DNA of 60,349 nt. Source: Acidimicrobiales bacterium (GTDB lineage Bacteria > Actinomycetota > Acidimicrobiia > Acidimicrobiales > SZUA-35). Below, one piece after another: positions 4,575 to 39,385 of this stretch. The translations under genes and the position numbers were made by a program. The first letter of the stretch is position 1. The number at the start of each line of letters is the position of its first letter. The notes below the pieces were generated by a model. The model did not search any database, was not told the DNA's origin, and was given only the letters and a program-made list of their open reading frames with translations. The DNA lies in assembly GCA_020629695.1 (NCBI GenBank), contig JAHDCV010000002.1, positions 37,895-98,243 of the forward strand. The letters run 5' to 3'.

Positions 4575-5276
4575 ATGACCCTCAGCGCGAGCGAACCGAC
4601 CCCGCCGATTCTCAAGGGGGCGACCGACCAGGCCGAAGCCCTCAACACGACCATGTCCAGTCCGTCGCGGCGCGCTTCGCTCCTGAATCCCTGGACCACG
4701 CTCGGGGTGGCCCTGATCGTGGTGGCGATCGGGCTGCTCGTGAACGCCCAACGGGCGGGGAGCGACATCGGTGTACCGGGCGCTCCACCGGCGGCGCTCG
4801 TCCTCGACGGAGCACCGGTCGTGTACGACGACGACGAGATCGAGGCCATGGCGGCGCCCGCTCTGGCCGCGATCGACTACGACTGGCCGACCCACCTCGC
4901 GGGCTGGCGGATCGAGTTCACCCGTGGCGAGGGCCGCGTGGCGGGCTACACGTGGTCGCGGGAGCAGCGGATCCAGATCTTCATCCGGCCCAGCACGACC
5001 ACGGCGAACCTGCCGCGCGTGATCGCCCACGAACTTGGCCATGCGGTCGACGTGACGCTCAACGACGCCGAGGACCGCCGCCGCTGGATCGAGCTCCGGG
5101 GCTTCACCGCTCCGTGGTGGCCCGATTCCGGGGCCGCCGACTTCGCCACGGGCGCCGGCGACTTCGCCGAGTCGTTCGCGATCTGGCAGGCGCCGACGTC
5201 GGACTTCCGGTCCGAGATCGGGGATCCTCCAGACGCGGAGGCGTTCGAGTTGATGGCGGAGTTGTCCACCGACTGA
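4575..5276 (+). CDS. membrane-anchored HExxH (zincin-like) metallopeptidase-like protein, hypothetical
   Basis: One N-terminal TM helix (TLGVALIVVAIGLLV). A VIAHELGHAVDVT zinc-binding motif with a downstream E/D. No family assigned. Confidence 0.5.
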   Translation: MTLSASEPTPPILKGATDQAEALNTTMSSPSRRASLLNPWTTLGVALIVVAIGLLVNAQRAGSDIGVPGAPPAALVLDGAPVVYDDDEIEAMAAPALAAIDYDWPTHLAGWRIEFTRGEGRVAGYTWSREQRIQIFIRPSTTTANLPRVIAHELGHAVDVTLNDAEDRRRWIELRGFTAPWWPDSGAADFATGAGDFAESFAIWQAPTSDFRSEIGDPPDAEAFELMAELSTD

Positions 5277-7765: not shown

Positions 7766-8740
7766 TCAGTCCGGGGCGAGGTCCCGGACGGCCTGGATCG
7801 GATCGATTCCACCGAACGGCAGCACGGCGATCGCCGGGGTGTCGACACCGGCGTCGACATAGGCCCGCAGATGTTCCTTGCAGGCCTCCGGCGATCCGTG
7901 GATGACGAGTTCGTCGACGACGGAATCGGGAATCGCGGCGAGTGCGGCCTTGCGGTCGCCGGCGGCCCAGTGATCCCACATGCCCTGGAGACGGTCGCCT
8001 CGGCCGAGCCATCGATGGAACTCCGCGTAGACCGGCACGTTGAGGTAGGCCGCGATCGCGAACTTCGCCTGGGCTCGCACGGTCTCGGCGTCCGGATTGG
8101 GGCAGACGAACAGACGAGCGACGATCTCGGCCGACTTGCCCGCCCCCGCGGCCGCCTCGTGCACGATGGGGGCGACGGTGCGAACATCCTCGGCGGACAA
8201 CCAGTTGATGATCGCGCCGTCCCCCTCCCGACCGGCCAGGCGGAGCATGCCGGGCCGAAGCGCAGCCACGAGGATCGGGGGCTGCTCGGCGACCCGCAGG
8301 CCGAGGCGGAACCCGTTCACCGTGAAGGTGTCGTACTCCTCCTTGACCTTCTCGCCCGACAAGGCGGAACGCAGGAAGCGGACAGTGTCCCGCGTGCGCT
8401 TGTAGGGCTCCTCGAAGGGGATCCCGTTCCAGCGTTCGACGATCACGTTCGACGACGAGCCGAGACCCATCACGAAGCGACCGGGAGCGGCGTCGGCGAG
8501 CGCGGCGACCGACTGGGCCAGGAGCGCCGGACCGCGGGTGAACGCGGGAATGATCGCCACGCCGAGCCGGAGCTCGGGGGCCCAGGCCGCTGCGAGGGCC
8601 AGCGGCGTGAACCCGTCACTGCCATCGGCCTCCGAGGACCAGACGTCGGTGTATCCCAGGTCGACGAGCTCCCGGTAGTGATCCCGGTGCTCACTGAGTG
8701 CGACGCCACCCAGTGGCACGCTCATTCCCCATCGACCCAT
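7766..8740 (-). CDS. LLM-class F420-dependent oxidoreductase
   Basis: Luciferase-like fold. ATG at 8740 (by frame arithmetic) is preceded by GAGGAGG. Confidence 0.7.
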   Translation of the reverse strand: MGRWGMSVPLGGVALSEHRDHYRELVDLGYTDVWSSEADGSDGFTPLALAAAWAPELRLGVAIIPAFTRGPALLAQSVAALADAAPGRFVMGLGSSSNVIVERWNGIPFEEPYKRTRDTVRFLRSALSGEKVKEEYDTFTVNGFRLGLRVAEQPPILVAALRPGMLRLAGREGDGAIINWLSAEDVRTVAPIVHEAAAGAGKSAEIVARLFVCPNPDAETVRAQAKFAIAAYLNVPVYAEFHRWLGRGDRLQGMWDHWAAGDRKAALAAIPDSVVDELVIHGSPEACKEHLRAYVDAGVDTPAIAVLPFGGIDPIQAVRDLAPD

Positions 8741-26235: not shown

Positions 26236-27174
26236 GTGGCCTCACGAGCCGACCACGCCTTGGCCGATGCAGCGGAACACGCCCATGGCGTCTTCTCCCG
26301 ATCCGAAGCCCGCTCGCTCGGACTCTCGGACCGTCAGATCAGATATCGCGTCGCCACCGGCCGATTGATCGAGGTCCACCCCGGTGTCGTCCGGCTACGC
26401 GGCTGGCCAACGACCTGGCAGAGCGAGACCCGGGCTGCCGTGCTCGCGACCGACGGGGTCGCCTCACATTGGAGCGCCGCAGCGCTCTGGCAGCTCCACG
26501 GAGCACGACCGGGCAGCCGACCGGAGGTGGCGGTCCGGCGCGGTCGCACGACCGTTCTGCCCGGGGTTCGCCAACACGAGACCACGCAGTTCGTCGGCAT
26601 CGACCCTGTCGAGATCGAGGGGATCCGCTGTACGGACATTCATCGCACGCTGCTCGACATCGCCCATCGCGTGGAGCTGGCGCGGTTCGTCCTCTTCGTC
26701 GACGACGCCCGGCGGCGAGATCTCGTCGACTGGCGATCCCTCCTCCGCTACTACCGACGATTCGGCCGACGCGGCCGCAACGGCAGTGCCCACCTGCGAG
26801 CCCTTCTCGATGCGCACTTCGGCTCCCAGGCACTGCCTGACTCGGGGTTCAATCGTGAGGTGGGCCAGCGGTTGATCGATGCCGGGCTTCCCCGGCCGGT
26901 GTTCGAGTACACCGTGGTCTTCCCAGATCGGTCGACGGCCCGATACGACCTCGCCTGGCCCGAGTTGCGGGTCGCAGTGGAACTCCATTCGGCGACCTGG
27001 CACCTCACGCGTTCAGCGTTGTCCAACGATGCTCGGAAGATCACCGATGCGATCCGTCTCGGTTGGCAGGTTCTTCCGTTCACCTGGGATCAGTGGCGTG
27101 CCTCGCCGGTCACGGTGATCTGTGCCATCGACGACGTGCTGCGCGAGCGGGCGCTTGCTGGAACTGCAGCCTGA
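26236..27174 (+). CDS. AbiEi-antitoxin-like N-terminal domain plus DUF559 (endonuclease-like) protein
   Basis: N-terminal GVFSRSEARSLGLSDRQIRYRVATGRLIEVHPGVV (the AbiEi_4-like wHTH). The C-terminal VFEYTVVFPDRSTARYDLAWPELRVAVE..H matches the DUF559/Vsr-like fold. Confidence 0.6.
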   Translation: MASRADHALADAAEHAHGVFSRSEARSLGLSDRQIRYRVATGRLIEVHPGVVRLRGWPTTWQSETRAAVLATDGVASHWSAAALWQLHGARPGSRPEVAVRRGRTTVLPGVRQHETTQFVGIDPVEIEGIRCTDIHRTLLDIAHRVELARFVLFVDDARRRDLVDWRSLLRYYRRFGRRGRNGSAHLRALLDAHFGSQALPDSGFNREVGQRLIDAGLPRPVFEYTVVFPDRSTARYDLAWPELRVAVELHSATWHLTRSALSNDARKITDAIRLGWQVLPFTWDQWRASPVTVICAIDDVLRERALAGTAA

Positions 27175-27223: not shown

Positions 27224-30200
27224 TCAGCGGAAGTTTCGGGCCATGGATTCGAGGCGGGCCGTCGACTGGGTCGGGTCGCTCCCGGGTGGCGCGTCGGTTG
27301 TCCACGGAGTCGGCCCGTGCTGGAGCTTCGGCGCGCTGCCGACCGGCAGCGGTTCGAACTTGTCGGCCACGACGTTGACCACCGTGCCCTGCTTCTCGAC
27401 CCGCCCCCGCACGAGCAGGGCCGGCGCGGACCGCACGATCTTGCGATACCGGCTCCAACACCCCACCGAGACGACGATGTTCATCAACCCGGACTCGTCC
27501 TCCATCCCGATGAACGTCGTCCCCGACGCCGTCGCCGGACGCTGCCGATGGGTGACCACACCACCGACCAGGACCCGGCTCCGATGCTCCAGCCCGCCGA
27601 GGTCGATCGCCCGGACCACACCGATCTCCCCCATCGAATCCCGGAGGAACTTCGTCGGGTGACCGTCGGGGGCGACACCGGTCGCCCAGAGATCGGCGAG
27701 AGCCTCCTCACGGTCGTCCATACCGGGCAGTGTCGGCGCCTCGAGACCGGTGACGATGCCCTCCAGGCGATCCGCTCCCATCTGTGACACGGCGCCCGCC
27801 GTCCACAGACTCTGCCGCCGCGACACACCCAGGCTGTCGAAGGCACCCGCCGTCGCCAGGGCTTCGAGCTGCTCCTTCGACACTCCGGTGCGCCGGGCCA
27901 GGTCCTCGATCGAGTGGTAGGGCCGCGCAGCGGCGATCACCTCGGCCAGATCTTCCCCGACACCTCGGACCGAGCCGATCCCCATCCGCACCGCCCAGCC
28001 GTGATCACGTCGTTCGACCTCGATCTCGTCCGCACCGGCGATCTCGATCGGTGTCGGTGGATGGTCGGCCGGCACGGGGGTGAGGATGGCATCGGCGGCC
28101 GAGGCGTTGACACAGGGCGACAGGGTCGGCACCCCGTGTCGCCGGGCGTCCTGCACCAGAGAATGCGGCGAGTAGAACCCCATCGGTTGCGCGTTGAGCA
28201 GCGCCGCACAGAACGCCGCCGGATACCGCAACTTCAGCCAGGAGGACGCGTAGACCAGGTAGGCGAAGCTGATCGAGTGACTCTCGGGAAAGCCGTAGTT
28301 CGCGAAGGCGGCGAGCTTGTGCCAGATCTGGTCGATGATGTCGGCCGGTACACCCCGTTCGGCCGCACCGACATCGAAGCGCGCTCGCAACTGCTCCATC
28401 CGTTCCCGTGAACGTTTCGACCCCATCGCCTGACGGAGTTGGTCGGCCTCGGACGGAGTGAACCCGGCCACGTCGATCGCCATCTGCATGAGCTGCTCCT
28501 GGAACAGCGGGATGCCCAGGGTCTTCTCGAGCGCAGGCTCCAGCAGCGGGTGGAGGTAGGTGACCGGCTCCTCGCCGTTGCGTCGACGGATGTAGGGATG
28601 CACCGAGCCGCCCTGGATCGGACCGGGCCGGATCAGGGCGATCTCGACCACGAGGTCGTAGAACGTGCGCGGCTTCAACCGCGGCAGCGTCGACATCTGC
28701 GCCCGGGACTCCACCTGGAACACCCCGACCGAGTCCGCCTTGCACAACATCGAGTAGACCGCGTCGTCCTGGGGAAGCGTCGCCAGATCGATCTCGACGT
28801 CGTGGTTCGCCTCGACGAGGTCGACACAGAGATGCAGCGCAGTCAGCATCCCGAGGCCGAGGAGGTCGAACTTCACGAGGCCGGCGGCGGCACAGTCGTC
28901 CTTGTCCCACTGGAGCACCGTCCGGTCCTCCATCCGGGCCCACTCGACCGGACAGACCTCGGTGACCGGCCGGTCGCACATCACCATGCCACCCGAGTGG
29001 ATCCCGAGATGACGTGGCAGGTGCTCGAACTGCACGGCGAGCTCGGCGACGTCATCGGGCAGCTCGTGGCCATCGCCGGGGCCGCGGGGTTCCGAGGTCG
29101 GCAGCGACGTCGGGCCGTCGGCGGCGGGGATCTCCACTCCGACCCTGCCCGGACCTCGCACCGCCGCGACCTGATGCTTCAGGCTCGACCACCGGTCCAG
29201 CGACTTGGAGAAGGCGTCCTGTTGACCCGGTGAGTAACCGAGCGCCTTGGCGGCGTCGCGCACCGCCGACTTCGATCGGTAGGTGATCACGTTGGCGACC
29301 TGCGCTGCGTGCCGGCGACCATGACGCTCGTAGACGTACTGGATCGCCTCTTCCCGGCGACCCGATTCGATGTCGAGATCGATGTCGGGAGGGCCGTCAC
29401 GCTCCGGGGACAGGAATCGTTCGAACAACAATCCGAGGCTCACGGCGTCGGCCTTGGTGACCCCCAGCACGTAACAGACCGCCGAGTTGGCCGCCGAGCC
29501 CCGGCCCTGGCAGTAGATGTCATGACGTCGACAGAAGTCGACGATGTCCCACACCACCAGGAAATAGCCGGGGAACCCGAGGGACTCGATCAGGTCGAGC
29601 TCACGATCCAGTTGCACCCAGGCCTCGGGACACCACGAGGCGTCGCGGGGCCCGTAACGCTGCACCCCACCCTCTTCGACGAGACGGCGGAGGTAGCCCA
29701 TCTCGGACAGACCGTCGGGACAAGGGAACGGTGGCAGGTTCGGGGCGACGAGCGACAGATCGAAGGCACACTCGCGCCCGATCGCCGCCGCTCGGGCGAT
29801 CACCCCGGGATACCGGGCGAACCGACGGGCCATCTCCTCCCCCGACCGCAGATGGGCGCCCGCACCCGCCGGCAGCCACCCCTGGATCTCGTCGAGGGAA
29901 CGTCGAGCCCGCACCGCGGCCATCGCTGTCGCCAGCCGCCGGTCCGAGGTGGTGGCGTAGTGCACGTTGTTGGTCGCCACGACGTCGAGGTCGAATGCCA
30001 CGGCCAACTCGGCCAGAGCGTCATTGCGCACCGTGTCCGAGGGATCCCCGTGATCCCACAGCTCCACGGCGACGTTGCCGGCGCCGAATCGATCGACCAG
30101 CGCCCCGAGTTCCCGGCGAGCCGCCGCCGGCCCCTCCCGCACCAGCGCCCGCGGGACCGAGCCCTTGCGGCATCCGGTCAACACCTGCCAATGGTCGACC

Positions 30201-30766
30201 TCACCCGGGCGGAGCCAACCATCGAGGTCGGCCATCGTCATCCGTGGCGCACCCTTCTGCCCGGCGAGCTGGGCTTCGGAGATCACCCGGGCGAGCGAGG
30301 CGTACCCCTCCGGCCCGCGCGCCAACACCAGCAGATGCGTGCCGTCCGGGTCGGCCTGGCCGGGTTCGGTGTCGAGCTTGTCGACCGTGAGTTCGGCCCC
30401 GAACACCGTCGGCAGACCCACCGACCGGGCCGCTTCGGCGAAGCGCACGACACCGTAGAACCCGTCGTGGTCGGTGATCGCCAGGGCTTCCAACCCGAGG
30501 CGGGCCGCTTCGGCCGCCAGCACCTCGGGATGGGATGCGCCGTCGAGGAAGCTGAACGTGGAGTGGGCATGGAGCTCCGCATACGGCACACGACCGGGCC
30601 GATACACCGACGGTGACGGCGCCAACTCCTGCCGCTTGGCCGACCACGCCGGAGCATCCCCTCCATCGGCGCCGGGGCCATAGCGGCGCGCGTCGGCAGG
30701 ACGACGATCGGAGAGCCGCGCCTCGATCTCGGACCAGGGCACCGGCGGGTTTCCCCATCCCATCAC
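27224..30766 (-). CDS. dnaE2: error-prone DNA polymerase DnaE2 (ImuC)
   Basis: 1180 aa. PHP domain (ELHAHSTFSFLDGAS), then the polIII alpha core. Start is GTG-ATG at 30766/30763. A Cheo box lies 9 nt upstream. Confidence 0.92.
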   Translation of the reverse strand: MMGWGNPPVPWSEIEARLSDRRPADARRYGPGADGGDAPAWSAKRQELAPSPSVYRPGRVPYAELHAHSTFSFLDGASHPEVLAAEAARLGLEALAITDHDGFYGVVRFAEAARSVGLPTVFGAELTVDKLDTEPGQADPDGTHLLVLARGPEGYASLARVISEAQLAGQKGAPRMTMADLDGWLRPGEVDHWQVLTGCRKGSVPRALVREGPAAARRELGALVDRFGAGNVAVELWDHGDPSDTVRNDALAELAVAFDLDVVATNNVHYATTSDRRLATAMAAVRARRSLDEIQGWLPAGAGAHLRSGEEMARRFARYPGVIARAAAIGRECAFDLSLVAPNLPPFPCPDGLSEMGYLRRLVEEGGVQRYGPRDASWCPEAWVQLDRELDLIESLGFPGYFLVVWDIVDFCRRHDIYCQGRGSAANSAVCYVLGVTKADAVSLGLLFERFLSPERDGPPDIDLDIESGRREEAIQYVYERHGRRHAAQVANVITYRSKSAVRDAAKALGYSPGQQDAFSKSLDRWSSLKHQVAAVRGPGRVGVEIPAADGPTSLPTSEPRGPGDGHELPDDVAELAVQFEHLPRHLGIHSGGMVMCDRPVTEVCPVEWARMEDRTVLQWDKDDCAAAGLVKFDLLGLGMLTALHLCVDLVEANHDVEIDLATLPQDDAVYSMLCKADSVGVFQVESRAQMSTLPRLKPRTFYDLVVEIALIRPGPIQGGSVHPYIRRRNGEEPVTYLHPLLEPALEKTLGIPLFQEQLMQMAIDVAGFTPSEADQLRQAMGSKRSRERMEQLRARFDVGAAERGVPADIIDQIWHKLAAFANYGFPESHSISFAYLVYASSWLKLRYPAAFCAALLNAQPMGFYSPHSLVQDARRHGVPTLSPCVNASAADAILTPVPADHPPTPIEIAGADEIEVERRDHGWAVRMGIGSVRGVGEDLAEVIAAARPYHSIEDLARRTGVSKEQLEALATAGAFDSLGVSRRQSLWTAGAVSQMGADRLEGIVTGLEAPTLPGMDDREEALADLWATGVAPDGHPTKFLRDSMGEIGVVRAIDLGGLEHRSRVLVGGVVTHRQRPATASGTTFIGMEDESGLMNIVVSVGCWSRYRKIVRSAPALLVRGRVEKQGTVVNVVADKFEPLPVGSAPKLQHGPTPWTTDAPPGSDPTQSTARLESMARNFR

Positions 30767-30774
30767 ATCACGTT

Positions 30775-30790
30775 ACGAACACCTGTTCGA
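30775..30790. promoter_or_regulatory. LexA (SOS/Cheo) box ACGAAC-ACCT-GTTCGA upstream of dnaE2
   Basis: Matches 11/12 of the actinobacterial consensus TCGAAC-N4-GTTCGA. It sits in the dnaE2 / methyltransferase divergent region. Confidence 0.8.
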
Positions 30791-30819
30791 TCGCGCAACG
30801 CGCCAGTCGATTGCTCCGA

Positions 30820-30863
30820 ACACATCGAAACCGACCACCCGACACATCGAAACCGACCACCCG
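30820..30863. repeat. 22-bp perfect tandem direct repeat (x2): acatcgaaaccgaccacccg
   Basis: Located between the dnaE2 Cheo box and the methyltransferase start. Candidate operator. Confidence 0.6.
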
Positions 30864-30883: not shown

Positions 30884-31870
30884 GTGTCGGGGTATGCGGT
30901 CCTGATCCGGGAGTCGTCGAATCGGGTCTACGACGGCGACGGCGCGCGCCTCCTGGCCGCCGAGCTCGCCGCACATCGACCCCACCTCCGCGCCGCCCTG
31001 ACCACCATCGAACGATGCGGGCCCGACGACCCGATGGACCTCCACCTCACGATCGAGGGCGACCTCGACGAGCACGATCGGCGCCTCCTCGGCAACACCT
31101 CCGGACTCCGTCTCCTGTTCCGCCGCCACGGCGACCTCCTCGAACCGGTCGCACTCCCGGTCTCGGCCGAACACGACAGCGACCTGATCACGATCCAGCG
31201 GTATCGGGGCAAGACCAACGAGCAGTTCACCCACCTCCTGGTGAACCTCACCGTGCTCGCCGCCAGTCCGGCGGACGATCGTCGGCTCCACCTGCTCGAC
31301 CCGGTCGCCGGTCGCGGCACCACCCTCAACCGCGGGCTGGTGCTCGGCTTCGACGTCGCGGGCGTCGAGAAGAGCGGCACCGAGGTCGACGCCTACCGGA
31401 CGTTCCTGTCCAACTACTGGAAGGACCATCGGGTCAAACACAAGCTCCACCGGGAGCGGATCCGCAAGGGCCCGCACGCCGGTTCGCAACGCTTCTCGAT
31501 CCGCCTCGGCACGGGTCAACGGATCGACGTCGCCCAGGCCGACACGTCAGCCGTCGGTGGCGTCTTCCCCGGTCGCAAGTTCGACGTGATCGTCGGTGAC
31601 CTGCCCTACGGCGTCCAACACGGAGCCCGGCACGGCGAGGAGACCGACCGATCCGCGGCTCGCCTGCTCGAGACGGCGCTTCCCGAGTGGCGACGGGTGC
31701 TCCGTCATGGTGGCGCGATCGGCTTGGCCTGGAATCTCCGCACGCTGCCGCGCGCCGAGATGATCACGTCACTGCGTGAGCACGGCTTCGACGTCGTCGA
31801 CCATCCACGCTCGTTCGAGCACGTCGTCGACCGTTCGATCACCCGGGATCTGGTGGTCGCCACCCGCTGA
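30884..31870 (+). CDS. SAM-dependent methyltransferase (UPF0020/TRM11-like; DPPY-type motif IV DLPYG)
   Basis: VIVGDLPYG motif IV and a Gly-rich motif I region (LDPVAGRGTTL). 328 aa. Confidence 0.55.
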   Translation: MSGYAVLIRESSNRVYDGDGARLLAAELAAHRPHLRAALTTIERCGPDDPMDLHLTIEGDLDEHDRRLLGNTSGLRLLFRRHGDLLEPVALPVSAEHDSDLITIQRYRGKTNEQFTHLLVNLTVLAASPADDRRLHLLDPVAGRGTTLNRGLVLGFDVAGVEKSGTEVDAYRTFLSNYWKDHRVKHKLHRERIRKGPHAGSQRFSIRLGTGQRIDVAQADTSAVGGVFPGRKFDVIVGDLPYGVQHGARHGEETDRSAARLLETALPEWRRVLRHGGAIGLAWNLRTLPRAEMITSLREHGFDVVDHPRSFEHVVDRSITRDLVVATR

Positions 31871-33508: not shown

Positions 33509-34597
33509 ATGAAGGCAGCGGTACTCAACTCAGCTCCCGGACAGCTCGACATCGAGGACGTCCAACTCGATGAACCGGGCCCCAACGAGGTCCTCATCAC
33601 CACGAAGGCCGCCGGCCTCTGCCACTCGGACCTCCACTTCATGGAGGCCACCTACCCCCACCCCTGCCCGACGGTGCTCGGCCACGAATCCGCCGGAGTC
33701 GTCGAAGCCGTCGGTCCCGGCGTGCGCCACGTGCAGCCCGGCGATCACGTCATCACCTGTCTCTCGGCGTTCTGCGGCACGTGCTCGATGTGCACCAACG
33801 GCAACATGTCGCTCTGTGAACGCAAGCGCATCGACCTCGTCCGCCAGCCCGACGAGGGCTCCCGGATCCGACGGGGCGACGAGGACGTCCACCAGTTCCT
33901 CCACCTGTCGTCCTTCGCCGAGCAGATGCTCGTGCACGAGAACGCACTGGTGAAGATCCGCGAGGACATGCCACTCGACAAGGCCTCACTCATCGGGTGT
34001 GGCGTCACCACGGGTCTCGGTGCGGTGTTCCGGACCGCACGCGTGGAGCCCGGCACCTCCGTGGTGGTCATCGGTTGTGGCGGCATCGGCCTCTCGGCGA
34101 TCCAGGGTGCCCGCATCGCCGGTGCCAACAAGATCATCGCCGTCGACATGCTGCCGTCGAAGCTCGAGCTCGCCCAACAGATGGGCGCCACCCACGTCGT
34201 CGACGCTTCGTCGAACGACGCGGTCGCCGCCGTCAAGGATCTCACCGGTGGTGGCGCGCACTATTCGTTCGAGGCGGTCGGCCTGCCCGTGACGGCCCGG
34301 CAGGCATTCGAGATGCTCCGCCCTCGTGGGCAGGCCACGGTGATCGGTCTGATCCCGGTCGGCGCCGAGGTGACGATCACGGGTGTCGATCTGCTCGACG
34401 AGAAGATCCTCACCGGATCGAACATGGGCTCGAACCAGTTCCGGACCGACATGCCCCGGTTCGTCGACATGTACCTCGACGGCAAGCTGATGCTCGATGA
34501 GATGGTGAGTCAGCACATCTCACTCGACCAGATCAACGAGGGCTTCGACGACATGAAGGCGGGCAAGGTCGCCCGGAGCGTCATCCTCTTCGACTGA
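33509..34597 (+). CDS. zinc-dependent alcohol dehydrogenase (class III / mycothiol-dependent formaldehyde dehydrogenase-like)
   Basis: GLCHSDLH, GHESAG, structural Zn Cys cluster CGTCSMCTNG, and a GCGGIGL Rossmann motif. The ATG is preceded by GGAGAGG. Confidence 0.85.
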   Translation: MKAAVLNSAPGQLDIEDVQLDEPGPNEVLITTKAAGLCHSDLHFMEATYPHPCPTVLGHESAGVVEAVGPGVRHVQPGDHVITCLSAFCGTCSMCTNGNMSLCERKRIDLVRQPDEGSRIRRGDEDVHQFLHLSSFAEQMLVHENALVKIREDMPLDKASLIGCGVTTGLGAVFRTARVEPGTSVVVIGCGGIGLSAIQGARIAGANKIIAVDMLPSKLELAQQMGATHVVDASSNDAVAAVKDLTGGGAHYSFEAVGLPVTARQAFEMLRPRGQATVIGLIPVGAEVTITGVDLLDEKILTGSNMGSNQFRTDMPRFVDMYLDGKLMLDEMVSQHISLDQINEGFDDMKAGKVARSVILFD

Positions 34598-34617
34598 GCC
34601 ATCCATCCAGGCTCGCG

Positions 34618-36252
34618 CTAGTCGTAGCGGGCCTCGATCATCCACTGCTGGTGCTCCACCACCAGCAGACAGGCGGATCCGTCGTCCAGGCGGACTTGGA
34701 GTCGCGCTCGTCGCCGATGATGCAGTGGATCCCACCAGCGCTCGTCGGCCGCCCAGGGGCCGACCCAACCCTCGATCCCGGCTCGCCACCCTCTCCCGAC
34801 GATTCGGACCGGCTCCGCCGAGGCCTCTCCACGCCCGCTCACCACCACGGGCTCGTCGAGGATGTCGAGCAGGGCCACCGGCTCGGGTTCGGGCAACACG
34901 GACAACGGCAACGGTGACGGGACGGAACCGGGCCAGGGTTCACGGACCCAGCCGGCAGCCGCGGCCGGACGGGCCTCGGCGAGATCGACCACGGCGGCAG
35001 GCACCAGTTCGATGCGCTCGTCGGGACCCCGACCGCCTCGCCACTCCGGCACGGTCACCGCATCCGGGCCGAGCAACCCCTGGAGCCGGGCGACGGCACG
35101 ACCGACCTGTTCGCCCCGATCGCTCCGTCCGCCCCAGAACCCCAACTGCCGACCGGTCGCCGCCACGACCTGATCGGGGATCAGGTGCAATCGGGTGATC
35201 GCCCCAGGTCCGGTGTCGAGATGGGTGTCGCCGGGCTCGACGGCCTGCCCGGTCCGATCACGACCGGTCCGCCGCTGATGGTCCACCGATCGCTGATGGA
35301 GCCAACCATCGAGTTGCCAACGAGCCCGGTCGGCGACGGCGGACGGTGACAGTGCACCCTCGTGCCGCCACAACCGCCGGTGCACCTCACCGCCCGCGTT
35401 CTCGGCTTCCACAGCCAGCCGCACACACGCGAGACCACGCCGACCGAGTACGAGGTCCAGCTCGTCCGCCAGCGCCTTGGCCGCGAAGGCGCACTGGTCG
35501 AGACGGTCGGCCGGAGGGTCGAAGTCCCAGCTGACCGCGAGATCCGGTGCCGGCCGTCGGAGATCCGGAGGATGCGCATCCTCGCCGCGGGCCAGACGAT
35601 GCGCGACCAGCCCGTCCTCCCCGAACCGTCCGAGCACATCGGCAGCAGACAGTCCGGCGAACGCTCCGAGGGTGCGGAGCCCCAACCGGCGGAGCACGTC
35701 GCACAGCTCCGGGCGCTCGAGCAGGCCGACGTCGAGACCGGCGAGGAATGCCGGGCTGCCGTCGACCTCCACGATGGCGGCGCCGTCGGCGGCCCGGCGG
35801 TGCCGTGACGCCAGGGATGCGGCGAAGGTGCCGTCGGCGACACCGATGTGCAGTGGGGCCCGTCCGTCGAGGACCGGCTCGATGGCCTCGCGCACCCGAT
35901 CGGCGACGGGTTCGTCACCGCCGAAGTACCGGGACGGACCGCGCATGCCGAACCCGACCAAGCCCGGCATCGAGACCTCGACGAGTGGCGTCAGATCCTC
36001 CAGGCAGGCGGCGACCGGCTCGAATCGTCGGGCCTCGCGCTCGAGATCACGCTCCACGATGGCGACATCGGGACATCGACTCTGCGCCTCGCGCCGTCGT
36101 TGTCCGACCTCCACACCCTCCGCCCGTGCCGCGGGCGACGTGGCGAGCACCCGATTCGCACGGACGACCGCCACGGGTTCGTCGAGTGGGATCCCCGACA
36201 CGACCACGGGCCAGTCCGGCACCCGGGCGGCGAGCGACCGAGCACCGGTCAC
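34618..36252 (-). CDS. imuB: ImuB (Y-family polymerase-like mutasome subunit)
   Basis: N-terminal ...RVPDWPVV (the CPDWP-type motif of UmuC/DinB-like proteins). 544 aa, a typical ImuB length. Has its own Cheo box 58 nt upstream. Confidence 0.75.
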   Translation of the reverse strand: MTGARSLAARVPDWPVVVSGIPLDEPVAVVRANRVLATSPAARAEGVEVGQRRREAQSRCPDVAIVERDLEREARRFEPVAACLEDLTPLVEVSMPGLVGFGMRGPSRYFGGDEPVADRVREAIEPVLDGRAPLHIGVADGTFAASLASRHRRAADGAAIVEVDGSPAFLAGLDVGLLERPELCDVLRRLGLRTLGAFAGLSAADVLGRFGEDGLVAHRLARGEDAHPPDLRRPAPDLAVSWDFDPPADRLDQCAFAAKALADELDLVLGRRGLACVRLAVEAENAGGEVHRRLWRHEGALSPSAVADRARWQLDGWLHQRSVDHQRRTGRDRTGQAVEPGDTHLDTGPGAITRLHLIPDQVVAATGRQLGFWGGRSDRGEQVGRAVARLQGLLGPDAVTVPEWRGGRGPDERIELVPAAVVDLAEARPAAAAGWVREPWPGSVPSPLPLSVLPEPEPVALLDILDEPVVVSGRGEASAEPVRIVGRGWRAGIEGWVGPWAADERWWDPLHHRRRARLQVRLDDGSACLLVVEHQQWMIEARYD

Positions 36253-36303
36253 GGTCGCTCCGAACTCAGGTCGTGATGACCGCCGAGGTGTTCCGCCATC
36301 GCC

Positions 36304-37593
36304 TCATGATCGAACACGTGTTCGTTCGACGTCAACCCCGAACGCCCCCGGCGCCATCTCGACGGGCCCCGCTCGGTCGATGCGACGGATCACGACGGCG
36401 TAGAGCACGGCCGCAGCCATCGTCACGACACCCATCACCAGGAACGATCCGGACAGGCCGACCGCCTCGGCCAACAGACCGAGCGGGTAGGCGGCGATGC
36501 CGAAACCGGCGAACGACAACATCATCAGACTCTGCACCCGGCCCCGGTGAGCGTCGTCGGTGAGGCCGAGGGCGAGGGTGTTCGACAGGGACTGGAACCC
36601 CGTGGTGGCCGATCCGATCAACACCACGACGGCGAACGCCCACCAGAACGAGTCGGCGAACGCGAGCAGGGCGACCGTCGCCCCGAAGGCCACCCCGGAC
36701 CCGATCATCCAGCGACGTGCCCCAGGAGCGTCGGCGCGGGCGGCGAGCGGCAGACCGACCACCAGCGCACCGAGCGACGAGGCCGACATCAGGTACCCGA
36801 CCCACGCCTCGTCCCGCCCGAAGGTGTCCTCGACCAGAGCGGGGATGAACGCGACGTAGTTGAAACCGAACATGATGATCACCGTCGAGGCCACGATGAT
36901 CGCCGCCAGCCGCGGCTCGGCCGCCACGTGTCGGACACCTTCGACCAACTCGGCGATCGGCCGGCGATCCGACGTCGACGCCGGCGGACGGCTCGGCAGT
37001 CGAAGCAGGAACAGCCAGGCACCGACGGCGAAGGCGGCCGTCACGAGGTAGGTGCCGCCGATCCCGAGTGCCGGGATGGAGAGCAACAGGCCGGCGCTGG
37101 TCGGCGCGAAGATCCGGGTCGTGTTGAGCGTCAACAGCGACAGGGTGATCGCGTTGCCGATGCGGTCCGCGCCGACGAGCTCGGCGGTGTAGGCCACACG
37201 CGCCGGGCCGTAGAACCCGAAGGCGAGCCCCTGTGACCCACTCGCCACGAGCAGCATCCAGAACGACACCACGTCGGCGAGCACGACGATGCCCATCCCG
37301 AGCGCCACCACGAGCAACACCGTCTGCGAGACGAGCAGCACCGCACGCTTCGGCAGACGGTCGGCCGCCACACCCCCGGAGAGCGTGGCGACGAGCATCG
37401 AGAGTCCGAAGACGAGGTAGACGAGGCCGAGGGCGCCTTCTGCCTCGGTCAGATCCCAGGCCAGCACACCACGGAGCAGCAGCTGCATCTGGACCGACAT
37501 GAACGAGAACAAGCCGGCGAACCAGAGTTGACGGAAGTCCCGGACACGCAACGACGACCCGGCGTCGATGACGGTCTGGCGCAGCGAACTCAC
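36304..37593 (-). CDS. MFS transporter (about 12 TM)
   Basis: GTG start at 37593 (VSSLRQTVIDAG...). Continuous hydrophobic helices with MFS-type loop motifs (GVAADRLPKR). Lies between imuA' and imuB. Confidence 0.75.
   Translation of the reverse strand: MSSLRQTVIDAGSSLRVRDFRQLWFAGLFSFMSVQMQLLLRGVLAWDLTEAEGALGLVYLVFGLSMLVATLSGGVAADRLPKRAVLLVSQTVLLVVALGMGIVVLADVVSFWMLLVASGSQGLAFGFYGPARVAYTAELVGADRIGNAITLSLLTLNTTRIFAPTSAGLLLSIPALGIGGTYLVTAAFAVGAWLFLLRLPSRPPASTSDRRPIAELVEGVRHVAAEPRLAAIIVASTVIIMFGFNYVAFIPALVEDTFGRDEAWVGYLMSASSLGALVVGLPLAARADAPGARRWMIGSGVAFGATVALLAFADSFWWAFAVVVLIGSATTGFQSLSNTLALGLTDDAHRGRVQSLMMLSFAGFGIAAYPLGLLAEAVGLSGSFLVMGVVTMAAAVLYAVVIRRIDRAGPVEMAPGAFGVDVERTRVRS
36310..36325. 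promoter_or_regulatory. LexA (Cheo) box TCGAAC-ACGT-GTTCGT upstream of imuB, lying inside the last codons of the MFS gene
   Basis: Matches 11/12 of the consensus. The MFS ORF stop is at about 36304. Confidence 0.7.
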
Positions 37594-37650
37594 CCGGAGA
37601 CCGTACGTGCGGCCCACTCCGACGACCGCATCGACGTACGAGGTCTCCCG

Positions 37651-38361
37651 TCACGCCTCGACCGGTGACCGCCGCCTCACCCGACGGGGTGCGAACTCCC
37701 GGATGTCCGCGCCGGCCGCCTCCAACCGGCCCGATGGCCCGGGGAGCAGGACCTCGACCGAGCGGGCCCGCGACGCCGACCGCCGACCGGCGGCCTCCAC
37801 ACGCACCCGACGTTGACGCAACAGGCCGTGGCCACGCTCGAGCCCCTCCCAGGCACCGGCCGAGACCCGCAGCCCCACGTCCACGGCCTGCGGCCAGCTC
37901 CGCTGATCGCCCAGCTGGAACACCAGACCGTCCCGCTCGCGGGCACGGGCGACCAGCCGACGGGCATCCCGTCGGGTGACCGGTCGGTCCGGGGACACCA
38001 CCACCACGTCGACCGCGTCGATGAGTGTCGAGGTGACCACACCCCACCGCTCCGCACCGGGCGGCTCGACCACCACGACCCGATCGAGCGGCACACCCAG
38101 CTCACTCGCCGCCGCGAGATTGAAGCCACCGACGCCGACCAGCGCGACCCACCCGTCAGCACCCATGACCTCGGCGACGAGGGCAGCCACCAAGGACGAG
38201 GCTCCGTCGCCGTCGAATCCGACGGTCCAACCCGGTTGCAGACCTCCCATCGGGAACAACGGCCGCAGGGGCTCGGGCACCGGGCGGAGCCGCTCGACCG
38301 CGAGTGTCACCGGTGCCACCCGCTCGATCAGTTCCGCCAGCTCTGCACGGGAGGTCGACAT
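37651..38361 (-). CDS. imuA': ImuA' (RecA-fold/SulA-like mutasome subunit)
   Basis: MSTSRAELAELIERV...GGLQPGWTVGFDGDGASSLVAALVAEVMGADGWVALVGVGGFNLAAASELGVPLDRVVVVEPP. A degenerate RecA-like P-loop region typical of ImuA'. Confidence 0.75.
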   Translation of the reverse strand: MSTSRAELAELIERVAPVTLAVERLRPVPEPLRPLFPMGGLQPGWTVGFDGDGASSLVAALVAEVMGADGWVALVGVGGFNLAAASELGVPLDRVVVVEPPGAERWGVVTSTLIDAVDVVVVSPDRPVTRRDARRLVARARERDGLVFQLGDQRSWPQAVDVGLRVSAGAWEGLERGHGLLRQRRVRVEAAGRRSASRARSVEVLLPGPSGRLEAAGADIREFAPRRVRRRSPVEA

Positions 38362-38371
38362 CACCCCATCA

Positions 38372-38387
38372 TCGAACACTTGTTCGA
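38372..38387. promoter_or_regulatory. LexA (Cheo) box TCGAAC-ACTT-GTTCGA upstream of imuA'
   Basis: Matches 12/12 of the consensus, 11 nt upstream of the imuA' ATG. Confidence 0.85.
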
Positions 38388-38422
38388 CGATGGCAACACG
38401 CGCGACCAGAAGGGCGCCGACA

Positions 38423-39385
38423 CTAGGACTCGATCACCACCGGGACTCCCTCCGGATGGGCGGGAGCGGCCTCGATGGCCCGGATCTCGACGTCGAGCCC
38501 GGCGACCGCGGCGAGCACGGCTTCCACCCCTCCCTCGGGCATCAACCCCACGACCGCGCCACCCGACCCCGTGAACGTCGCCGGAATCCCCGCTTCCGAC
38601 AGCCGATCGATCGGGATGAGCTGCGCCGGAGCGACCGGGGCGAGGGTTCGCCGGATCGCCATGTTCTCGGCCATCAGCGCGCCGAACCGAACCGTGTCGC
38701 CCCATCGCAGCGCGGCGCGCCCGTCGAGCACGAGCGCGGCCAGCCGCTGCAGGCTCCGGCGAACCACCGCATCGCCGTCGTCGAATCGGGCCCGGAGCAC
38801 GCGATGGAACCCGTCCGAAGGTTCGGCCGCTCCGGTTCGCCAGCCGAGGAACAACGCCGGAAGCCGCTCGGGATCCACCGCCTCGTCCTCGCCGTGACGC
38901 ACACCGAAGCGCGCCTCGGACCGCAACTCCGAGAAGTCCATCGCCACCAATCCCCCGCGGCTCTGCACCACACGGTCCTGCAGCCCCGCGGCGATCCCGA
39001 GACGTCCGGTCTCGACCCCGAGCGCCACCGGTGGGAGCACCGCAGCCGGCCACGTCAGCCCCGCGTGTCGACCGAGAACCGACAACGCGGCGAGCACCAG
39101 GGCCGACGAGCCGGCCAGGCCGACGGCGCGGGGGATCCCGGTCGAATACCGCAGCTGGAACCCTCCCGGCCGATCCAGACCGAGCCCGTCCAGCACATCG
39201 CAGAAGGTCCGGATCGTCGCCGTCAGCAGTTGCGTTCCCGTCCCCAACCCGTGCCGGTCGACATCGGTGCACAACGCGTCGAGATCCACCCATGCGGGCG
39301 CGTCGCCGGGACCGGGCACCACGACCACGTCGTCGGCCGGCTCGAGCTCGACGGTGGCGGCCATTCCGGCCACGGCCATCGCCAA
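38423..39385 (-). CDS. GHMP-family kinase
   Basis: The ATP-binding motif P..GLAGSSA (AVGLAGSSALVLAAL) is present. 320 aa; substrate unknown. Confidence 0.55.
   Translation of the reverse strand: MAMAVAGMAATVELEPADDVVVVPGPGDAPAWVDLDALCTDVDRHGLGTGTQLLTATIRTFCDVLDGLGLDRPGGFQLRYSTGIPRAVGLAGSSALVLAALSVLGRHAGLTWPAAVLPPVALGVETGRLGIAAGLQDRVVQSRGGLVAMDFSELRSEARFGVRHGEDEAVDPERLPALFLGWRTGAAEPSDGFHRVLRARFDDGDAVVRRSLQRLAALVLDGRAALRWGDTVRFGALMAENMAIRRTLAPVAPAQLIPIDRLSEAGIPATFTGSGGAVVGLMPEGGVEAVLAAVAGLDVEIRAIEAAPAHPEGVPVVIES

Follow-up and report, generated by a model that had tools for sequence, protein, structure and literature searches.

How can the parts of a mutasome stay under common control once the operon that encodes them has been broken? 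The question is raised by a stretch of 60,349 nt from an Acidimicrobiales metagenome-assembled genome (MAG), hereafter the window, in which a gene for a transporter of the major facilitator superfamily (MFS) stands between imuA' and imuB, with dnaE2 3.9 kb beyond imuB (gene-strand features are all on the minus strand). In bacteria without Pol V, LexA-controlled imuA-imuB-dnaE2 cassettes, which are known both whole and split, are a main source of the mutations that damage induces, and in mycobacteria the damage-induced mutations owed to mutasome cassettes include drug resistance. The computational analysis described here indicates that the window probably holds a LexA-controlled mutasome locus in which imuA' and imuB were pulled apart by a local rearrangement that copied a promoter module.

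Genes of the locus

An earlier note on this DNA had read imuA', an MFS gene and imuB in that order on one strand, and profile searches bore this out. The genes that form the locus are as follows.

imuA': 37651-38361, minus strand, ATG start, 236 aa; NCBIfam NF058630 'ImuA'' at 124.7 bits (cut-off 65).
MFS transporter gene: 36304-37593 (429 aa, GTG start at 37593) or 36304-37617 (437 aa, GTG start at 37617), minus strand; assigned with Pfam.
imuB: 34618-36252, minus strand, GTG start, 544 aa; Y-family IMS domain PF00817 at 50.5 bits.
dnaE2 (imuC): 27224-30763, minus strand, ATG start at 30763; error-prone DNA polymerase, 1179 aa.

For a protein identical to the window ImuA', the Pfam domain PF27531 MT3502_N is on record as a precomputed annotation. 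The window ImuB is 54-85% identical to proteins called 'protein ImuB' by JGI, and its clamp-binding motif QLGFWG occupies residues 369-374, of which Q369, L370, W373 and G374 are invariant across 36 homologues; the β-clamp-binding motif of M. tuberculosis ImuB is QLPLWG (PMC10421592). DnaE2 scores 1421 bits with NF004225 (cut-off 939), whereas with the DnaE1 model NF004226 it reaches 721 bits, under the cut-off of 1002. Sequence searches of PDB with the three proteins found no close solved homologue. The gap between imuA' and imuB amounts to 1398 nt and contains the MFS gene, which begins 57 nt after imuA' if its start is taken as the GTG at 37593.

Since the source is a MAG, it might be suspected that this gene order is an assembly chimera. 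Yet four independent Logan assemblies and an NCBI MAG likewise have imuA'-MFS-imuB on a continuous stretch, so that the probability of such an artefact is negligible; moreover, the imuA'-MFS junction recurs in a diverged ENA contig (L014; ERZ27295575), and the GC content is even over the junctions. The window as a whole is 99.9% identical to GCA_020630995.1.

Gene order among relatives

Among 80 species-representative imuB loci that were examined, imuA' was detectable in 75. The distance from the imuA' stop to the imuB start is within 60 nt in 65 of these and 83-468 nt in the other 10, and in none of the 75 is there a gene between the two. Thus, the earlier statement that imuA' and imuB are usually adjacent holds, and the arrangement is not one that is already common among relatives: the imuA'-MFS order occurs only in the window lineage and in L014. 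Among the roughly 5.8 billion sequences of a protein database, identity to the window MFS protein exceeds 63% for a single other cluster, P0002 at 86%, and its source is L014, a 1.5-kb contig in which the 3' end of imuA' stands directly upstream of the MFS gene. Positions 1-168 of L014 encode a 44-aa C-terminal stretch of ImuA' that is nearer to L012, a locus without the MFS gene (84%), than to the window (72-79%), which hints at loss, recombination or incomplete sorting among sibling lineages, 44 residues being too short to decide.

The closest relatives with data are L012 (85% identity in ImuB, 81% in ImuA') and L010 (83% and 77%, respectively). Both lack the MFS gene, and their imuA' and imuB share 4 nt. 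The neighbourhood of L010 is otherwise that of the window, with RNase HII, two small genes, a GHMP kinase, imuA', imuB, a convergent alcohol dehydrogenase (ADH) gene, two further genes and dnaE2, and in either locus imuB and the ADH gene adjoin tightly.

In the nearest other Acidimicrobiales (ImuB 54-61% identical), homologues of the transporter (51-56% identity) are located just downstream of imuB on the same strand, directly after it in L016, L018, L019, L020 and L021, and with one gene interposed in L013 and L015. In the neighbour-joining tree of ImuB these loci belong to the clade that is sister to the window, L012 and L010, and the imuB-MFS linkage is found in 7 of the 10 members of that clade. 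These loci share with the window the MFS_3 family of the transporter, the strand and a GHMP kinase upstream, and in L013 also the ADH downstream. Unlike in the window, their MFS gene comes after imuB, imuA' and imuB are adjacent (with a 4-nt overlap in L013) and a single LexA box precedes imuA'; in the window imuB and the MFS gene are swapped and a second promoter is present. Since imuB is followed by these homologues in most members of the sister clade, the linkage is older than the window arrangement, and the transporter is probably not foreign.

LexA boxes and promoter modules

The LexA consensus of M. tuberculosis is TCGAAC(N4)GTTCGA (PMC3381160). Three predicted boxes, given here without strand, and three promoters that enclose them were located in the window.

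LexA box 1: 38372-38387, TCGAACACTTGTTCGA; 0 mismatches to the palindromic consensus; within the spacer and -10 of P1.
LexA box 2: 36310-36325, TCGAACACGTGTTCGT (gene strand ACGAACACGTGTTCGA); perfect CGAAC-N4-GTTCG core, its one mismatch is the outermost base; falls within the final six MFS codons.
LexA box 3: 30775-30790, gene strand TCGAACAGGTGTTCGT; one outer-base mismatch; precedes dnaE2.
Promoter P1 (imuA'): 38368-38396, minus strand; -35 TTGCCA at 38396-38391, 17-nt spacer, -10 GATGAT at 38373-38368.
Promoter module P2: 36283-36342, minus strand; -35 TTGACG at 36335-36330, 18-nt spacer, -10 GATCAT at 36311-36306, ATGGCG; overlapped by the last codons and stop codon of the MFS gene.
dnaE2 promoter: 30770-30798, minus strand; -35 TTGCGC, box 3, -10 TAACGT, leaderless ATG at 30763.

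Box 1 was rightly described before as a perfect match, and box 2 as a near-perfect one set in the last MFS codons; the distances once given to the start codons of imuA' and imuB, 11 and 58 nt, are by our count 10 and 57 nt. The exact core CGAAC-N4-GTTCG is found at three sites in the 60 kb against 0.18 expected, namely before imuA' (38373-38386), imuB (36311-36324) and dnaE2 (30776-30789). When up to one mismatch to the consensus is allowed, there are seven matches against 0.34 expected; the others (8851, 24804, 34418 and 47255) were set aside, as their GAAC/GTTC core is broken or the site falls within a coding sequence. The one at 34418-34433, TCGAACATGGGCTCGA, lies in the convergent ADH gene and is most likely a by-product of protein sequence, since a similar site is present within the ADH gene of L010.

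Each box sits between a -35-like and a -10-like hexamer, a layout that is the same in 61 imuA' promoters of other species. A scan of 34400-38600 (4.2 kb) with a sigma-70-like consensus returned only two sites where 0.2 were expected; both are minus-strand sites, and each of them encloses a box. In P1 and P2 six bases follow the -10 and then comes ATG, and the layout before dnaE2 is alike; for imuA', the short distance from -10 to ATG implies that its mRNA is probably leaderless.

A position matrix was built from the imuA' promoter modules of the 61 other species (consensus TTGcc..atCGAACAngTGTTCGATACTGggGggATGg). Against a window background of -48.7 +/- 12.3 it gives 40.5 bits to P1, 33.1 to P2 and 25.4 to the dnaE2 promoter, while the fourth-best site (17.3 bits) is the coding look-alike at 34418-34433. 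With the box columns masked P2 still obtains 9.5 bits, 4 standard deviations above a background of -14.5 +/- 5.8. In local alignment P2 scores 47 with the region upstream of imuA' in L010 (shuffled 17.8 +/- 2.6) and 50 with that in L012 (shuffled 16.2 +/- 2.3), none of 500 shuffles reaching either value, and its alignment with P1 is likewise above all 500 shuffles. Box 2 therefore does not seem to have arisen by itself, being embedded in what reads as a full imuA'-type module including ATGGCG, and imuB is, judged by its sequence, behind a LexA-type promoter of its own. The earlier proposal that imuB kept or gained such a promoter is sustained as to possession by P2; 'kept' is contradicted by the relatives, whose only LexA box precedes imuA', imuB being without one.

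One may ask whether P2 is active at all. It could be an inert relic, with imuB transcribed only by read-through and the module persisting as MFS coding sequence; the overlap with the last MFS codons offers a constraint that could keep it, and the P2 flanks and the body of the short reading frame described below look degenerate. However, homologues differ in the C-terminal tail of the MFS protein, where coding constraint should accordingly be weak, and the matrix score of P2 falls among those of real imuA' promoters. The -35, the -10 and the two half-sites are all intact, and L014 keeps all of them in its last MFS codons (box 2 as ACGAAC-AGGT-GTTCGA), the module being identical to that of the window at 34 of 36 nt compared with 81% for the whole MFS gene. 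An inert P2 is thus decidedly improbable.

The layout is widespread. A module of about 50 nt, composed of a -35, a LexA box in the spacer, a -10 of the form GAT(A/C)(C/A)T, about 6 nt and ATGG, is shared by imuA' and dnaE2 promoters in Acidimicrobiia and other sampled actinobacterial loci (61 imuA' promoters, L010-L096), which implies leaderless mRNAs for imuA' and dnaE2 throughout the group.

The short reading frame before imuB

The module P2 does not end at its -10. Its ATGGCG, identical to the first two imuA' codons of L010 and L012, opens a short open reading frame (ORF) that leads into imuB.

Short ORF: 36249-36299, minus strand; 16 codons, MAEHLGGHHDLSSERP and a stop; starts at the P2 ATGGCG, and its TGA overlaps the imuB GTG (GTGA).

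The overlap of 4 nt is the same as that of imuA' and imuB in relatives, and 5 nt upstream of the imuB GTG there is a GGAG. Since the ORF, in its 41-nt body, does not significantly resemble imuA' of the window, L010 or L012, it may be called a relic of a second imuA' copy only as a possibility. A match of the body to imuA' of L012, which 4 of 500 shuffles reach, falls in mid-gene and was not taken as meaningful, and a candidate remnant of the imuB 5' end after the stop of the full imuA' (GTGACGGG) was not significant. That a whole imuA'-type module, a relic start codon and a short ORF precede imuB suggests that P2 was copied from an existing mutasome promoter.

A probable history of the split

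The arrangement is best explained by a local duplication or rearrangement, because the transporter has long adjoined the cassette, as the imuA'-imuB-MFS order of the sister clade indicates; that a foreign pump was captured is less likely. The ancestral order would have been promoter, imuA', imuB and MFS, with imuA' and imuB in a leaderless operon overlapping by 4 nt. The rearrangement would have set the MFS gene between the two, leaving them about 1.4 kb apart, and would have fused its 3' end to a second complete mutasome promoter module. One route might be a tandem duplication of promoter-imuA'-imuB-MFS followed by the loss of one copy of each gene, which would yield precisely the MFS-P2 junction of the window plus the short relic ORF. 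This route is only a model, since the ORF body shows no significant resemblance to imuA'. In the resulting locus imuA', imuB and dnaE2 would each stand behind a promoter that LexA would occlude, and joint induction of the three mutasome parts would be kept because each promoter spacer is a LexA site. The translational coupling of imuA' and imuB would be lost; its place would be taken by the GGAG and, possibly, by termination at the short ORF followed by reinitiation. The pump is probably expressed from a promoter of its own and, after LexA cleavage, probably also receives read-through from the imuA' promoter.

The second module could also have come by recombination instead of by duplication in place. 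DNA with an MFS gene and a promoter may have been integrated from a related strain, for instance from a circularised promoter-imuA'-imuB-MFS segment by homologous recombination, and redundant parts deleted; or a module of about 50 nt may have been copied illegitimately. The -35 elements agree with such a mixed origin, that of P2 (TTGACG) being as in L010 and that of P1 (TTGCCA) as in L012; so do the tight imuB-ADH junction in the window and L010, as if their common ancestor never had the MFS gene there, and the affinity of the ImuA' stretch of L014 to L012. However, the promoter differences are a few bases only, the L014 comparison rests on 44 residues, and the large protein database holds no high-identity donor, the best MFS protein outside the lineage being 63% identical. 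Recombination is therefore a possible but unlikely origin. Duplication in place, integration of related DNA and copying of the ~50-nt module are not separable here, because similarity outside the core is not significant and the core is nearly identical even in distant actinobacteria.

For the same reason, as the core is conserved by function, its similarity cannot by itself date the copying. When the P2 flank was set against those upstream of 91 such promoter modules, for the most part from imuA', L010 came top for the L014 copy by one point (21 vs 20), while for the P2 of the window L010 was outside the top five; a lead of one point at most leaves a clade-local origin of P2 short of proof. 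A scan of JGI metagenomes for the MFS-P2 junction matched only two distant actinobacterial imuA' promoters, and it is this result that shows the functional conservation of the core.

Several points weigh against a local rearrangement of a LexA-controlled operon. L010 and L012 are without the MFS gene altogether, so that an ancestral linkage needs extra losses, or else the gene was re-acquired. In L013 and L015 another gene stands between imuB and the MFS gene, which favours plain synteny over an operon. The window and L014 make up a deep branch of their own in the MFS tree, equidistant from the two other groups (the imuB-linked homologues and those of a third context, described below) and not nested among the imuB-linked ones; this fits vertical descent at about the divergence of ImuB, without proving it. 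Beyond its constrained core the P2 flank is not significantly similar to any imuA' upstream flank, the same is true of the ORF body and imuA', and a lexA gene is not present in the 60-kb window. Even so, a local rearrangement with promoter copying is the reading that we consider probable.

The transporter and its expression

The MFS protein was assigned to the MFS_3 (DHA3/EntS-like) class. It scores 110.2 bits with Pfam MFS_1 (cut-off 33.4) and 91.9 with MFS_3 (cut-off 27), the latter model covering residues 22-411. With the equivalog models for EntS and Tet(V) it obtains 129 bits (cut-off 324) and 60 bits (cut-off 640), and since both scores are well under the cut-offs the substrate cannot be named; as to 12 transmembrane helices, a crude hydropathy scan gave an ambiguous picture. 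The dN/dS (ratio of nonsynonymous to synonymous substitution rates) between the window and L014 is 0.13, which points to a functional gene under purifying selection.

Is the pump part of the SOS response? The element that bears most directly on this precedes its start codon.

Candidate MFS -10: 37600-37605, minus strand; TACGGT, followed after 6 nt by the GTG at 37593.

The same TACGGT-N6-GTG is present in L014, hence 429 aa is the likelier length of the protein. Among MFS homologues in other contexts TANNNT or CANGGT was found 6-9 nt before the start in every context examined, and the gene appears to have its own -10 and a leaderless start. A PafBC / RecA-NDp motif (PMC8682763) was sought by eye before the gene and rejected, the distance from GTCGG to TACGGT being 13 nt in the window and 9 in L014 compared with 10 in the consensus.

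According to one explanation, the pump was inserted and is now a working SOS part, co-transcribed with imuA' under LexA and exporting a genotoxin or a damage product. The 57-nt spacing agrees with this, as does the scan of 34400-38600, which found no terminator-like site, including between imuA' and the MFS gene; so do the purifying selection, the ties of the MFS gene to mutasome genes in three arrangements (after imuB, 3-6 kb from dnaE2, and that of the window) and the precedent of dinF in E. coli (PMC3327717). Yet the MFS gene has a promoter-like element of its own in every context examined and no LexA box directly before it in any relative, L013 and L015 have another gene between imuB and the pump, L010 and L012 hold the cassette without it, and the EntS and Tet(V) scores point to no substrate. 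A pump inserted as an SOS part is thus rather unlikely. Co-transcription with imuA', which had been regarded as probable in the earlier note, is possible given the missing terminator, but the gene's own candidate -10 would make it dispensable; SOS induction of the pump by read-through from imuA' is plausible. The further claim, that an SOS-inducible pump embedded in the cassette is unusual, is weakened: the MFS gene is no unusual foreign insertion, as homologues adjoin imuB in most of the sister clade, and an SOS-controlled efflux pump has its precedent in dinF.

A broader proposal would make MFS_3 an accessory of the mutasome response, its repeated linkage reflecting co-expression after LexA cleavage and export of a genotoxic metabolite or damage product, and selection for this having driven the promoter duplication that rescued imuB. 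This is very doubtful.

The third context of the gene, in which DUF3039, malic enzyme and MFS genes follow one another and the MFS gene is 3-6 kb from dnaE2, is that of a compact clade with MFS proteins about 75% identical to each other (L006 1474-4926 and 8001-9287; L009 1-1896 and 8001-9275). In this clade the MFS gene is downstream of dnaE2, and the dnaE2 of L006 has a degenerate LexA-like box and a leaderless ATG. In L018 (~7795-7824) and L020 (~4655-4685) the imuB-linked MFS gene has, immediately upstream of its leaderless ATG, an AT-rich palindrome, TTAGA(G/C)TTTCTAA, that looks like an operator for a pump regulator.

Two further features of the window concern the surroundings of dnaE2. 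Just upstream of its -35, at 30820-30863, there is a perfect 22-nt tandem repeat in two copies (GGGTGGTCGGTTTCGATGTGT, minus strand); it is located in the divergent intergenic region that faces a gene for 328 aa (30884-31870) and is absent from the matching region of L010. An AbiEi_4 antitoxin-like gene (precomputed Pfam) adjoins the 3' end of dnaE2 on the opposite strand in the window (~26236-27174, plus strand) and in L001 (20445-21314).

Comparison with known systems

The mutasome of mycobacteria is split into an imuA'-imuB operon (Rv3395c-Rv3394c) and a separate dnaE2, each LexA-regulated (PMC3381160, PMC10421592, PMC8682763), and both promoters are confirmed LexA targets (PMC3381160, PMC8682763). 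The window resembles it in having ImuA', an ImuB with a clamp-binding motif and DnaE2, in the SOS box TCGAAC-N4-GTTCGA, and in a dnaE2 with its own box-bearing promoter; mycobacterial ImuB is catalytically dead (PMC10421592). It differs in that imuA' and imuB are 1398 nt apart with a transporter in between and imuB has its own box-bearing promoter. A motif of the PafBC type was not found in the window locus in a check made by eye only.

Dispersed imuA/imuB/imuC cassettes, each gene with its own SOS box, are mentioned in PMC3901139 (citing Erill et al. 2006). As far as they are described there, the window is like them in being split with LexA-type control predicted on every piece, and unlike them in that the pieces lie within 11 kb and the imuB promoter is recognisable as an imuA'-type module, to which a relic start codon and a short ORF belong. 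The lexA-dinF operon of E. coli provides a case of an efflux pump in an SOS operon, DinF being a MATE transporter with shown SOS regulation and phenotype (PMC3327717). A membrane exporter gene downstream of a LexA-controlled promoter, in the window a predicted one, is common to both; in contrast to dinF the window transporter belongs to the MFS and probably has its own promoter.

A split between imuA' and imuB is not known to us for the actinobacterial imuA' type, and our literature search found no publication connecting an MFS gene to imuA' or imuB. Split cassettes with SOS boxes on their pieces and an SOS-controlled efflux pump were already known, and the locus is not a new kind of system. 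What is new is the split between imuA' and imuB, the recurrent linkage of an MFS_3 transporter with mutasome genes in Acidimicrobiales, and an origin of a new operator that, as the evidence suggests, is visible as the copy of a whole promoter module.

Implications

The current view of how the mutasome works is unchanged by this locus. It offers a candidate case of regulation being kept through promoter duplication when an operon breaks, and a probable route by which a split mutasome piece acquires an operator of its own. The presence of the MFS_3 family near mutasome genes across a mostly uncultured actinobacterial order gives, in addition, a testable, presently weak lead to damage-linked efflux.

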